64,000 nucleotides of DNA from Candidatus Endomicrobiellum agilis (GTDB taxonomy: Bacteria > Elusimicrobiota > Endomicrobiia > Endomicrobiales > Endomicrobiaceae): NCBI GenBank assembly GCA_020328155.1, contig JAIXMX010000002.1, positions 1,847-65,846 of the forward strand. The letters are read 5' to 3'. Below are positions 1 to 1,645 of the stretch, piece by piece. The position numbers were made by a program, and so were the translations under genes. The notes under the pieces are model-generated. The model worked only from the letters and a program-made list of their open reading frames with translations. It ran no database searches and was not told the DNA's origin. The number at the start of each line of letters is the position of its first letter. The stretch's first letter is position 1.

Positions 1-39
1 TATGTATATGTATATGTATATGTATATGTATATGTATAT
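1..39 (+). repeat. (TATGTA)n hexanucleotide microsatellite, 6.5 units, running off the 5' edge of the window; in frame it encodes (Cys-Ile)6 of a signal-peptide h-region
   Basis: Direct reading of bases 1-39. The frame is fixed by the stop codon at 627-629. Confidence 0.95.
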
Positions 40-629
40 TCTTGACGTCTGGCTGTGATAAGTCGCTTAGTCATGGAAGACTTGCGAATACTGTTGTTAA
101 GGATAGAGGAAGCGAAGGCGTTTCAACGCATTCGCTGACGTCAGATACTTCAAATGCTTCCGCTTCAACACCTGAGGCTCAGCCTGTGTCTGATAGTGCT
201 GTGTCTTCCTCTTGGATTTCTTGGCATGGGTATGTTCCTACGATTAATACAGGTAATATAATTGCGAATTATGTTTTGAATATTGTTGCTTATTCTCTTG
301 CTCTTGTTGGCGTATGTTATGGCGGTTATAAGCCGCTTTATAGATTTGCAGATATTAAGCCTTTTCTTGAGGATTTATTAGATGAAATTCCTTCTGCTAA
401 AAATATGCCTGAAGGTTGTAAAGAATGTTATTTTAGTAATGGTCATTTTTTTGATTGGGATACAGATAAATTTATTGAAGAAATTCCTGTTAATGTAAAA
501 GAAGAAAGGTTTAAATCTTCATTACCTACTTACTATTATAAACCTAATTCGTTAATGCTGAACCTTCTGAAAACTTTGTTAAGAAAGATATTCAGAATTG
601 AAGTACCGAAGTCCTATTTTGATAGATAG
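1..629 (+). CDS. Variable lipoprotein, paralogue A (5' end outside the window)
   Basis: The frame of track ORF 42..629 stays open back to base 1. It reads (CI)6-F-L-T-S-G-C-DKSLSHGR, i.e. an h-region plus an S-G-C lipobox-like site. This is followed by an S/T/P-rich linker, one hydrophobic helix (IIANYVLNIVAYSLALVGVCYGGY) and a unique C-terminal ~110 aa. The N-terminal ~45 aa are paralogous to 819..1412. Confidence 0.75.
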   Translation, partial: CICICICICICIFLTSGCDKSLSHGRLANTVVKDRGSEGVSTHSLTSDTSNASASTPEAQPVSDSAVSSSWISWHGYVPTINTGNIIANYVLNIVAYSLALVGVCYGGYKPLYRFADIKPFLEDLLDEIPSAKNMPEGCKECYFSNGHFFDWDTDKFIEEIPVNVKEERFKSSLPTYYYKPNSLMLNLLKTLLRKIFRIEVPKSYFDR

Positions 630-825
630 GAGCCTAGAATGCCCGAAAACGTTGAGAGCGTTACAGAAGACATTTTAAAGGAAACACGCAACATCTACAT
701 TTCCGCACAGTCGTTAATAAGGCGGTTATGTGATAGGTTTGACGAGCTCCGAGAGAGCTGATTGATATGTGCGAAGACATAATAAGTTCAGTTTATAGAA
801 TTGAGGACAACTAATAAAATGAAAA
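626..825 (+). repeat. Conserved inter-cassette module, copy A (~200 bp; contains a small ORF, spacer, RBS and the ATG of the next lipoprotein gene)
   Basis: Near-identical to 1409..1609, with a handful of substitutions and one 1-nt indel. The flanking coding bodies are unrelated. Confidence 0.9.
639..761 (+). CDS. Conserved 40-aa small protein (MPENVESVTEDILKETRNIYISAQSLIRRLCDRFDELRES), copy A
   Basis: AGGAG lies 7 nt upstream of the ATG. It is too short for the ORF track. A second copy at 1422..1544 differs at 4 nt but only 1 aa. Confidence 0.6.
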   Translation: MPENVESVTEDILKETRNIYISAQSLIRRLCDRFDELRES

Positions 826-1412
826 AAACTATATGTATATGTATATGTATATGTATATGCCTGATGTCTGGCTGTGATAAGTCGCTTAGTCATGGAAGAC
901 CTGTGAATGCTGTTGTTGAGGATAAAGCAACGCATTCGCTGACGTCAGATACCTTAAATGCTTCTGCTCCTGAACCTTCAAACACTCCCACTCCAACACC
1001 TGAGCTGAGTAAGTCTGTTCAGCCGTCTGATACTACTGATACAGGTAGCTCGGTTGTGAAATATGGTCTTTGGGCTTTTGCTTTTATTGCTCTTATTGTT
1101 GGCTGTTATGATGTGTTTAGATATTTCAAACCTGAAAGAATAGAAATACCTGCGCCTAAGATTGCAGGTTATGTCCCTTCTACTTTTGACCAAATTGACC
1201 CTAAAGTTTACCAATTTTGTTATTGTAGGTATAACAGCGACATTTCTTATACTTGGTATTTTGCTAAAAGGAAAATTAAACGCTATTTTTGGACTGATTT
1301 TATACAGATGAAGAAAATTGATAGTAAAATACCTATTTATCAATTGTGTAATCCTTTGAATCATTCTTATCTTTTTAATTTTTATGTTTATAAGCCTGCA
1401 CCTAGCAAATAG
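819..1412 (+). CDS. Variable lipoprotein, paralogue B
   Basis: The ATG at 819 (the track start at 801 is an upstream TTG) gives MKKT-(IC)5-LMSGC-DKSLSHGR. It has the same N-terminal module as paralogue A, then a P/T-rich linker, the helix YGLWAFAFIALIVGCY and an unrelated C-terminus. Confidence 0.75.
   Translation: MKKTICICICICICLMSGCDKSLSHGRPVNAVVEDKATHSLTSDTLNASAPEPSNTPTPTPELSKSVQPSDTTDTGSSVVKYGLWAFAFIALIVGCYDVFRYFKPERIEIPAPKIAGYVPSTFDQIDPKVYQFCYCRYNSDISYTWYFAKRKIKRYFWTDFIQMKKIDSKIPIYQLCNPLNHSYLFNFYVYKPAPSK
830..859 (+). repeat. (ATATGT)n hexanucleotide microsatellite, ~5 units, encoding (Ile-Cys)5 in the signal peptide of paralogue B
   Basis: Direct reading: the same repeat as at 1-39, but shorter. 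Confidence 0.95.
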
Positions 1413-1609
1413 GAGCCTAGAATGCCCGAGAACGTTGAGAGCGTTACAGAAGACATTTTAAAGGAAACACGCAACATCTACATTTCCGCACAGCCGCTGA
1501 TAAGGCGGTTATGTGATAGGTTTGACGAGCTCCGAGAGAGCTGATTGATATGTGCGAAGACATAATAAGTTCAGTTTACAGGATTGGGGGACAACTAAGA
1601 AAATGAAAA
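1409..1609 (+). repeat. Conserved inter-cassette module, copy B (orphan: drives only a 5-codon stub)
   Basis: Aligns base-for-base with 626..825. Its terminal ATG (1603) reads M-K-T-A-E-stop (1603..1620) and runs into a terminator hairpin. Confidence 0.9.
1422..1544 (+). CDS. Conserved 40-aa small protein, copy B (S25P relative to copy A)
   Basis: Same RBS spacing as copy A. The differences from copy A are gaa>gag (synonymous), tcg>ccg (S>P) and tta>ctg (synonymous, 2 nt). Confidence 0.6.
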   Translation: MPENVESVTEDILKETRNIYISAQPLIRRLCDRFDELRES

Positions 1610-1645
1610 CAGCGGAGTGATGGAAAAGCACTCCGCTGTTTATAA
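1610..1645 (+). terminator. Intrinsic-terminator-like hairpin closing the cassette array
   Basis: Perfect 10-bp stem CAGCGGAGTG / CACTCCGCTG with a 9-nt loop, followed by TTTAT. Confidence 0.6.

Follow-up and report, generated by a model that had tools for sequence, protein, structure and literature searches.

The closest described counterparts of the locus reported here are the small plasmids of Endomicrobia and certain families of lipoprotein or other envelope genes in Borrelia, Neisseria and Mycoplasma. The locus occupies positions 1-2130 of a 64,000-nt stretch of Endomicrobium/Endomicrobiellum DNA (hereafter, the window, which means the stretch at its full length). The lipoprotein gene array at 1-1645 was examined first; 1-2130 takes in the array together with the adjoining plasmid-like part. 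We believe that this region is probably the chromosomally integrated and partly decayed cargo of a small iteron plasmid of the same bacteria. Endomicrobium and Endomicrobiellum are intracellular symbionts of termite-gut flagellates, and the Endomicrobia serve as a model for free-living bacteria turning into intracellular symbionts.

Clustered lipoprotein genes with a conserved 5' region and signal peptide and with divergent mature parts are known as Vlp in Mycoplasma hyorhinis and as Vsa in M. pulmonis. The Vlp genes are switched by a promoter poly(A) tract and their products vary in size by C-terminal repeats; the Vsa system has one expression site, silent genes that lack the 5' part, and site-specific inversion. 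The Erp proteins of Borrelia are surface-exposed and have no transmembrane (TM) helix, and the elements that carry their genes are 32-kb prophages. The ospE, ospF and elp genes (Erp, on cp32), which figure in titles cited by PMC10016077, form plasmid-borne paralogous lipoprotein families with a shared upstream homology box. In the opa genes of Neisseria, the CTCTT repeat encoding part of the leader peptide varies by slippage, and the diversity comes largely from recombination between paralogues (PMC3960869). The plasmids of Candidatus Endomicrobium trichonymphae are documented in PMC5174739. In the literature searched we found no description of the lipoprotein family considered here, of the small gene X that accompanies it, or of their chromosomal integration; the word “lipoprotein” is absent from the Endomicrobia papers PMC5174739, PMC8809381 and PMC11257099.

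Array layout and the repeated module

The initial annotation, made from the sequence alone, described two head-to-tail units with a period of 783 bp between modules and 819 bp between lipoboxes, and both spacings were reproduced by a repeat finder. The features of the array are as follows.

1-39, + strand: perfect in-frame hexanucleotide repeat (TATGTA)6.5, 100% matches in Tandem Repeats Finder (TRF); the tract is cut by the window edge
3-629, + strand: lipoprotein gene of unit 1 (open reading frame, ORF), its 5' end outside the window
626-818, + strand: module copy 1, consisting of the stop codon/Shine-Dalgarno overlap (TAGGAG), X codons 1 to ~58, and the GAGGA ribosome-binding site (RBS) of the next gene
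639-761, + strand: X-fragment ORF of 40 aa, MPENVESVTEDILKETRNIYISAQSLIRRLCDRFDELRES, with a strong Shine-Dalgarno sequence
819-1412, + strand: lipoprotein gene of unit 2, 197 aa, identical to LE169_01125 (P0001)
830-859, + strand: perfect in-frame repeat (TATATG)5 (TRF) in the signal peptide of unit 2
1409-1602, + strand: module copy 2, with the same 1-nt deletion as copy 1 (repeat finder, alignment)
1422-1544, + strand: second copy of the X-fragment ORF, 40 aa, S25P, with a strong Shine-Dalgarno sequence

The module had been given as about 200 bp of near-identical sequence at 626-825 and 1409-1609. By repeat finder and alignment, the copies at 626-806 and 1409-1589 are 96% identical and 783 bp apart; extended to 825 and 1609, the alignment has 86% identity and a 1-nt indel. 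The gene heads (11-111 and 830-930) are 91% identical at an offset of 819 bp. Within the 64 kb, exactly two occurrences were counted both for a 38-nt word of the module and for a 34-nt word of the head (0 expected by chance in both cases). The hexamer tract reported for each unit is perfect in both, at 1-39 and 830-859. All genes of the array are co-oriented and packed tightly head to tail, with stop codons overlapping Shine-Dalgarno sequences; unit 2 and every whole array gene in the related loci have an ATG, a signal peptide and an RBS of their own (the start of unit 1 lies outside the window). The suspicion that the array continues upstream proved right: the 128,820-bp NCBI contig that holds the window also encodes, upstream of it, the family members LE169_01105 and LE169_01110, so the array has more than two units.

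The module had been taken for a shared 5' expression module, i.e., a 5' untranslated region. The comparisons below identify it as a gene fragment, in the window probably a dead one, made up of an RBS and the first ~54-58 codons of a small helical gene. Each copy opens with TAGGAG over the stop codon of the upstream gene, and nine bases on an ATG begins the 40-aa ORF. In related loci, reached through exact protein matches, the module sequence is present at 88-96% identity. Scans of genome and metagenome contig collections with a family profile and with an invariant 23-nt word of the module gave no match, evidently because these genomes are not among them. Some of the related loci belong to Ca. 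Endomicrobiellum agilis (a name given in PMC11257099), whose assembly GCA_020328115.1 (JAIXMW) was obtained from Trichonympha agilis cells of Reticulitermes flavipes (PMC8809381). On E. agilis contig 6 the module runs on into a gene of 131 aa, which we call X (L006 2824-3219; protein P0035, hereafter X-131) and which begins 10 nt after a lipoprotein gene of the family. Module copy 1 is 94% identical to the first 173 nt of this full-length gene as taken from L006 2812-3219, and all junction-type modules consist of X nucleotides 1-173 followed by ~25 nt with GAGGA and the next ATG. In public data 27 X-like ORFs of 54-131 aa have been called.

The coding pattern of X is visible in the module itself. 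Over ten copies, the ratio of nonsynonymous to synonymous polymorphism (pN/pS) is 0.29 in the X frame versus 1.08 and 0.84 in the other frames, and the variable sites are distributed over the three codon positions of X as 8/9/17. Both copies in the window have a common 1-nt deletion near codon 37 and retain only the first helix of X; in copy 1 the ancestral X frame would reach TAA at 812-814. A different lesion, TGT to TGA at X codon 31, is common to all three copies of the E. agilis array located at the gcv genes.

X-131 resembles an internal duplication of a ~55-aa helical hairpin with the motif ..P-x-D-L..L-I..C-x-D-I.., and in its structural model (pLDDT 85) two similar hairpins pack into a four-helix bundle; hence the common forms of 57-71 aa correspond to one hairpin and, according to the model, could still fold as dimers. 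The top Foldseek match of X-131 in PDB is a single-chain Rop bundle (E 0.01, non-significant), and the others are generic helical bundles. No Pfam or NCBIfam family matched X, the lipoproteins or the neighbouring array genes.

Other roles of the module were considered. A structured cis-regulatory RNA is ruled out by the fold z-score of -0.26, the absence of an Rfam match at the gathering threshold, and the coding substitution pattern. A promoter is not supported, since sigma-70-like sites are no commoner than in shuffled sequence (17 found, 13.6 ± 3.5 expected). The possibility that the lipoprotein and X form a toxin/immunity pair, as in orphan arrays of the CDI (contact-dependent inhibition)/Rhs type, was rejected because the downstream X is the most conserved part and does not co-vary with the body. 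The description of the module as a 5' untranslated region thus does not hold.

Colinearity with a small plasmid and exchange among paralogues

A member of the lipoprotein family (P0026) is encoded on an ENA termite-gut metagenome contig (L007) of 6,283 bp. The two ends of this contig overlap exactly over 1,371 nt, so that it closes into a circle of 4,912 bp. A contig from another sample (L008, 1-5425) is a circular permutation of this element at 99.4% identity. The plasmid has the following gene order: three lipoprotein genes, a form of X (X-68), a hairpin, 22-bp iterons (GCTCAAATGCGTGTTTCTATAT), and a gene for a 440-aa protein with the DnaA_N domain and a sub-threshold Rep3_N match. Over its full length, the latter protein shares 41-47% identity with the product of the first gene on each of the Ca. 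Endomicrobium trichonymphae plasmids that PLSDB contains. The corresponding features of the window are listed below.

1603-1620, + strand: vestigial ORF ATG-AAA-ACA-GCG-GAG-TGA (M-K-T-A-E-stop), from the alignment to plasmid L007
1607-1641, + strand: hairpin 1 with a 13-bp stem; its core at 1611-1637, AGCGGAGTGATGGAAAAGCACTCCGCT, is 100% identical to the plasmid hairpin after X
1657-1685, + strand: hairpin 2 with a 10-bp stem (repeat finder, fold)
1709-1742, + strand: hairpin 3 with a 15-bp stem, followed by TTTTTGCTT; the best candidate for an intrinsic terminator closing the array
1795-1858, + strand: remnant of the region just upstream of the plasmid rep gene, 83% identical to L007 2579-2641
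1934-2125, + strand: remnant of the Rep N-terminus, 63 aa, a pseudogene (Pfam DnaA_N, E 1.1e-7)

Window positions 1400-2130 follow the order of the plasmid: X, the hairpin (27 nt identical), the rep-upstream segment (83%) and the N-terminus of Rep. The plasmid-like part as a whole is 77% identical to the plasmid, rep is truncated, and the 22-bp iterons, which precede the rep-upstream segment in the plasmid, are deleted. Compared with the 440-aa plasmid protein, the 63-aa ORF has 54% identity to residues 3-69 and then ends in a stop; beyond 1934-2125 no further match to Rep was found in the window. We therefore read this ORF, from its similarity, as a truncated Rep-like N-terminus of plasmid origin rather than a chromosomal dnaA. 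The copy is surrounded by the housekeeping genes of the 64-kb window and is a remnant, not an autonomous circular replicon. The remnant at 1795-1858 contains the promoter-like TTGAGC-17-TATACT. Nothing points to the chromosomal origin at this place: DnaA boxes are not clustered at 1650-2820 and the GC skew does not switch sign there.

The end of the array had been described as an orphan module that drives only M-K-T-A-E-stop and runs into a terminator with a 10-bp stem. The short ORF at 1603-1620 and the terminator both stand; the stem is of 13 bp, two further hairpins follow, and the module is an X remnant to which the plasmid's own terminator is joined. The short ORF joins the lipoprotein gene start ATGAAAA to the last codons ..A-E-stop of the plasmid X-68, and the alignment shows it to be a hybrid, formed by deletion between a junction-type module and the X-68 terminus. 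The three-hairpin region after the array has a fold z-score of -7; in the array region examined there are no hairpin terminators between the units.

Downstream of another array, on E. agilis contig 3 (L004 2300-5200), there is a degraded X of 94 aa with a frameshift and an internal deletion, followed by small ORFs, one of which has a weak Rep3_N match (E 0.004). This suggests a second integrated plasmid remnant.

LE169_01125, to which unit 2 is 100% identical, is a protein of the Endomicrobium sp. metagenome-assembled genome (MAG). The sources of all 34 homologues of unit 2 are this MAG, Ca. Endomicrobiellum agilis and metagenome contigs of JGI/ENA, and a search with unit 1 gave the same distribution. 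The MAG alone has at least 11 paralogues on eight contigs, and a profile search of 1.84 billion representatives at E <= 0.001 with clustering at 50% identity gave 61 clusters. By these searches the family is confined to the clade and is highly diverse inside it. The arrays of E. agilis are found at differing chromosomal sites; for instance, six lipoprotein genes and three modules (L002 2309-6770, JAIXMW010000002.1) lie between gcvPA and gcvPB, the genes for the glycine-cleavage P-protein.

Two other types of lipoprotein were observed in the arrays. One has several hydrophobic segments and the end ..AYPHIW..KGAIWK (L002 3196-3795, L004 125-694, L006 1552-2181); its genes in L004 and L006 also contain the (TATGTA)n tract. 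The other combines a (PS/PT)n linker and a TM helix with a poly-Cys tail ..CCCCC.. (L002 2309-2839, L006 4898-5251).

The family is mosaic. In the 69 sequences of the family, all six pairings of linker types A and B with body types I, II and III are found. The body types likewise go freely with perfect-repeat and degenerate signal types, and with heads that have or lack the GSEGV insertion. Over the stretch that starts where its TM helix ends and takes in the module, unit 1 has ~94% DNA identity to an E. agilis gene which has a different linker and TM half, a degenerate signal, another downstream neighbour and another chromosomal context; the break in identity is sharp. In P0118, P0031 and L006 203-967 this type of signal peptide and head precedes a body that is truly unrelated, and LE169_01110 shares the head variant RLANTVVKDR with unit 1 and has an unrelated, K/E-rich body. 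The proposal that the conserved stretches provide anchors for exchange is borne out by the free combinations of signals, linkers and bodies and by the identity break in unit 1.

Module identity is 94.8% within arrays versus 91.6% between arrays (permutation p = 0.0013), and disabling lesions of X are common to members of the same array. Neighbouring bodies are ~35% identical while the modules of the window are 96% identical, which together with the higher similarity within arrays suggests that gene conversion or duplicative insertion has acted locally on the module. A nucleotide identity matrix of the bodies gave spurious values of 0% and 100% for divergent pairs, and only the comparison of heads was used. 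The repeat tract is polymorphic: the two versions of the plasmid (L007 and L008) have five differences in 5.4 kb, namely, three single-nucleotide polymorphisms, one iteron copy and one TATATG unit of the signal peptide. The ten tracts seen have 3.7-7.8 units, and the frame is kept in all of them.

It can be argued that the array arose by local chromosomal tandem duplication and divergence with no role of a plasmid, and that the DnaA_N ORF is the decayed chromosomal dnaA, as in Ca. E. trichonymphae Rs-D17. We consider this improbable. It agrees with the single X breakpoint common to all junction-type modules, with the disabling lesions shared within arrays, and with the strongly positive GC skew and the location of nearly all genes on one strand; PMC5174739 reports that in Ca. 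E. trichonymphae dnaA is a pseudogene. However, the segment from the orphan module to the DnaA_N ORF is colinear with the plasmid, including the hairpin identical over 27 nt and the rep-upstream segment at 83%, and the ORF itself is 54% identical to the plasmid protein and truncated after 63 aa. The ~700 bp of AT-rich DNA from there to the Tad operon contain no family-matching ORF, although they were not themselves searched for remains of the DnaA AAA+ domain. Duplication and divergence alone leave unexplained the coexistence of bodies at ~35% and modules at 96% identity, and the closest relatives of each unit sit in different E. agilis arrays and contexts.

The encoded lipoproteins and the remaining explanations

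The family alignment displays an invariant S-G-C, a conserved head of ~30 aa, an S/T/P linker, a TM segment and a C-terminal region with the conserved motifs G-Y-x-x-C-Y, F-D, I-D-E-I-P and Y-x-Y-K-P. The S-G-C is invariant across 32 aligned sequences. It was initially called lipobox-like, and it does fit the pattern of the PROSITE PS51257 style in unit 2 (Cys19), in unit 1 and in most paralogues; the rule failed for P0019, a paralogue with only two IC units. TM prediction agrees with the initial annotation in finding one hydrophobic helix in each of the two proteins.

In unit 1 the repeat tract codes for the (Cys-Ile)n of the hydrophobic core of the signal peptide (translation CICICICICICIFLTSGC), the lipobox Cys codon is at nt 54-56, the linker is of type B, the TM helix is at about nt 258-314, and the body is of type I, with a basic LRKIFRIEVPK tail and close similarity to P0112/P0113 of E. 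agilis. Among 5.8 billion proteins in the database none is identical to unit 1, so that this gene may be uncalled or treated as a pseudogene in the source annotation. Unit 2 begins with the signal MKKT(IC)5LMSG|C, followed by the conserved head and an S/T/P linker of type A; its TM helix comprises residues 75-101 (nt 1041-1121), and its beta-rich body of type II comprises residues 106-191 (nt 1134-1391).

The initial annotation could not align the two C-terminal bodies and regarded them as unrelated. Their profiles do align (hhalign probability 86%, E 5e-6, 60 columns), with a ~17-residue insertion in type II relative to type I; thus, the bodies of units 1 and 2 are distant homologues rather than unrelated cassettes. 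The AlphaFold2 model of unit 2, computed with the 32-sequence alignment, has a disordered N-terminal third, a helix at 75-101 and a six-strand beta domain at 106-191 (pLDDT 85-97), for which Foldseek found no significant match in PDB or BFVD. Around the TM helix, both proteins have 3 Lys+Arg in the 15 residues after it and 0-1 before it. According to the positive-inside rule, this excess of charge on the C-terminal side suggests a cytoplasmic location of the variable domain and so speaks against an antigen that varies at the surface.

The latter point bears on an explanation that builds on the initial one, namely, a phase- and size-variable surface lipoprotein system of the Vlp/Vsa kind, with the module as a shared promoter or 5' untranslated region driving each cassette and with rapid switching of cassettes in a population. 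The tandem genes with conserved 5' ends and divergent bodies, the mosaic family, the mutable repeat in the signal-peptide coding region and the weak promoter-like hexamers at 774-801 and 792-820 speak for it. Nevertheless, we find it very improbable. The module codes for part of X and is inherited together with the body upstream of it, and promoter-like sites number 17 against the expected 13.6 ± 3.5. The repeat unit of 6 nt never shifts the frame, and the genes are complete and co-oriented. In the window there are no C-terminal tandem repeats, silent cassettes without the 5' part, inverted repeats of the head or recombinase nearby. The variable domain follows a TM helix with more positive charge on its C-terminal side, and the symbiont lives in a protist and thus faces no adaptive immunity.

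The least credible explanation, that the tandem structure is wholly or partly an artefact of assembly in which reads of plasmids and paralogues collapsed or were mis-joined at the head, module or repeat, could draw on the origin of the sequence from a MAG, the shortness of many JGI/ENA family contigs and the many products called from a Met inside the lipobox (MSGCDK...), the lack of an identical database entry for unit 1, and the end of the independent contig L001 at window position 2498, but a single-cell assembly of E. agilis, made independently, has equivalent arrays inside long contigs (L002, L005) and flanked on both sides by chromosomal genes, the plasmid-like part is diverged and decayed (77%, iterons deleted, rep truncated), unlike plasmid reads, and the modules differ by seven substitutions and one indel and the heads by 9%, so they are not collapsed copies.

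The integrated plasmid cargo, which we prefer, meets its own difficulties. Neither an integrase nor another mechanism of integration was found; the upstream end of the array is outside the window, and the integration junctions are not in view. Positions 2140-2498, between the plasmid-like part and the Tad operon, are outside the independent JGI contig L001, which starts at 2498, so a chimeric join in the MAG contig is possible. Unit 2 has no tblastn match at E <= 1e-3 in any PLSDB plasmid, those of Rs-D17 included, and other family members tried gave weak N-terminal matches to two Rs-D17 plasmids. Local homogenisation is demonstrated for the module only, as head identity is 88% both within and between loci. 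Since both X fragments of the window are frameshifted, the pN/pS signal could in part be inherited or imported from intact copies by gene conversion. Finally, co-transcription, lipidation and the topology of both proteins are predictions.

The rest of the window is ordinary chromosome: the Tad/Flp pilus operon, aminoacyl-tRNA synthetases, argininosuccinate lyase and others. The Tad operon lies directly downstream of the array region, at 2822-9461, is 98.9% identical to the independent JGI contig, and includes TadE-like, Flp pilin, RcpC/CpaB, a CpaF-type ATPase, two T2SSF proteins of the TadB/C type and a TraF_2/DUF5723-like protein. A 1,554-aa ORF at 15934-20598 has no Pfam match at E <= 1e-4. 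At 37534-37606 there is a 21-nt tandem repeat (~3 copies, 75-77% matches), located in a 136-aa ORF (37459-37869) that has no Pfam match. Nearly all long ORFs of the window are on the + strand, 26 of its 28 DnaA-box-like 9-mers are on the - strand, and the GC skew profile, which covers the first 12 kb, is almost entirely positive.

Proposed course of events and relation to known systems

The cargo encodes a lineage-specific family of ~200-aa proteins. Their predicted lipoprotein signal peptide, with a hydrophobic core encoded by the in-frame (TATGTA)n repeat, leads into the head of ~30 aa; an S/T/P linker and one TM helix come next, and a beta-rich domain of ~90 aa, which has diverged into subfamilies, makes up the rest. 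X begins no more than 10 nt behind each lipoprotein gene. As to its integration, we infer that the plasmid cargo of lipoprotein genes and X recombines with paralogues via the X fragment, the signal peptide and the head; exchange probably takes place also between the multicopy plasmids and the chromosome. In the arrays X is cut to one hairpin or less and abuts the RBS of the next lipoprotein gene; homologous recombination would make the arrays grow, shrink and reshuffle. Integrated copies would then decay by truncation of rep, loss of iterons and frameshifts in X. Slippage in the hexamer tract would alter the length of the signal peptide; as the frame is left intact, the tract at most tunes export. 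The genes are probably co-transcribed, and the transcript would end at the plasmid-derived hairpins at 1607-1742.

The small plasmids of Endomicrobium, previously without an assigned role, carry a clade-specific, fast-diversifying family of membrane-anchored lipoproteins; on the reading preferred here, their cargo enters the chromosome and decays there, while recombination at conserved 5' anchors keeps shuffling it. The locus provides candidate proteins of the symbiont envelope, a strain-level marker (the hexamer tract and cassette order), and an example of a repeat that varies the length of a signal peptide and not the reading frame. It also accounts for the fragmentation of assemblies at such regions, and annotations should treat the intergenic “module” as a fragment of a gene.

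A further proposal can be made, although we regard it as unlikely. The exchange of cassettes between multicopy plasmids and chromosomal arrays via the conserved X, signal and head stretches, combined with a hypermutable, frame-preserving (Ile-Cys)n tract that tunes or disables export and lipidation, might constitute a contingency system generating envelope diversity between cells. If true, this would be a mechanism of variation distinct from on/off frameshifting, in a host without adaptive immunity, and the diversity would act at the interface of the symbiont with its host or with phages.

The comparison with known systems is as follows. No promoter homopolymer of the Vlp type, nor a short repeat, is found upstream of either ATG in the window, the sole A-run (A7) being inside codons 2-3. 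By TRF, neither body contains C-terminal repeats except a 9-mer in 2.3 copies at 1078-1098. Inverted sites of the Vsa type have no counterpart, as neither the head nor the module has an inverted copy in the window, and no recombinase domain was detected with Pfam in the ORFs up to 9.5 kb downstream.

In opa, as here, a short tandem repeat codes for the hydrophobic core of the signal peptide in a multigene envelope family. However, the opa unit of 5 nt provides on/off switching, whereas with 6 nt only the signal-peptide length varies; Opa proteins are outer-membrane beta-barrels, and the proteins of the window are predicted lipoproteins.

The X-131 model matches ColE1 Rop with TM-scores of 0.70/0.76, E 0.01 and 13% sequence identity, which is a generic, non-significant match between helical bundles. 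Rop (63 aa) dimerises into a bundle, as the one-hairpin X of 57-71 aa could, and both genes are plasmid-borne. The analogy is structural only: for X there is no evidence of RNA binding or copy-number control.

The Rs-D17 plasmids pTGRD1-3 (NC_020420-22, AP017462) are alike in the putative Rep of the DnaA_N type (41-47% over the full length), in size (5-11.6 kb) and in host clade. This conserved protein of ~420-440 aa is full length in L007, and the window retains its 63-aa N-terminal remnant. Several small genes of pTGRD1 and pTGRD2, all annotated as hypothetical, have lipobox signals, T/P-rich linkers and TM helices, and the plasmids have weak N-terminal similarity to the family, such as ..NASASEP... 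It was also observed that the lipobox proteins of pTGRD2 and pTGRD1 (L011/L012) have (TP)n linkers and that one motif, ..STNASASEPTPTP.., resembles the head and linker of the window family. The differences are that no X gene was found in pTGRD1 and pTGRD2, both searched, and that the copy in the window is chromosomal and decayed.

The Erp families of Borrelia have no sequence relationship to the window family, their conserved box is a promoter/operator while its counterpart here is a truncated protein-coding gene, and their elements are prophages of 32 kb rather than iteron plasmids of 5 kb. The likeness lies in paralogous lipoprotein genes on multicopy elements, a conserved upstream region and leader, and mosaic, divergent mature parts that recombination has shaped. 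By analogy, we presume that the locus works most like the plasmid-borne paralogous lipoprotein families of the Borrelia kind.

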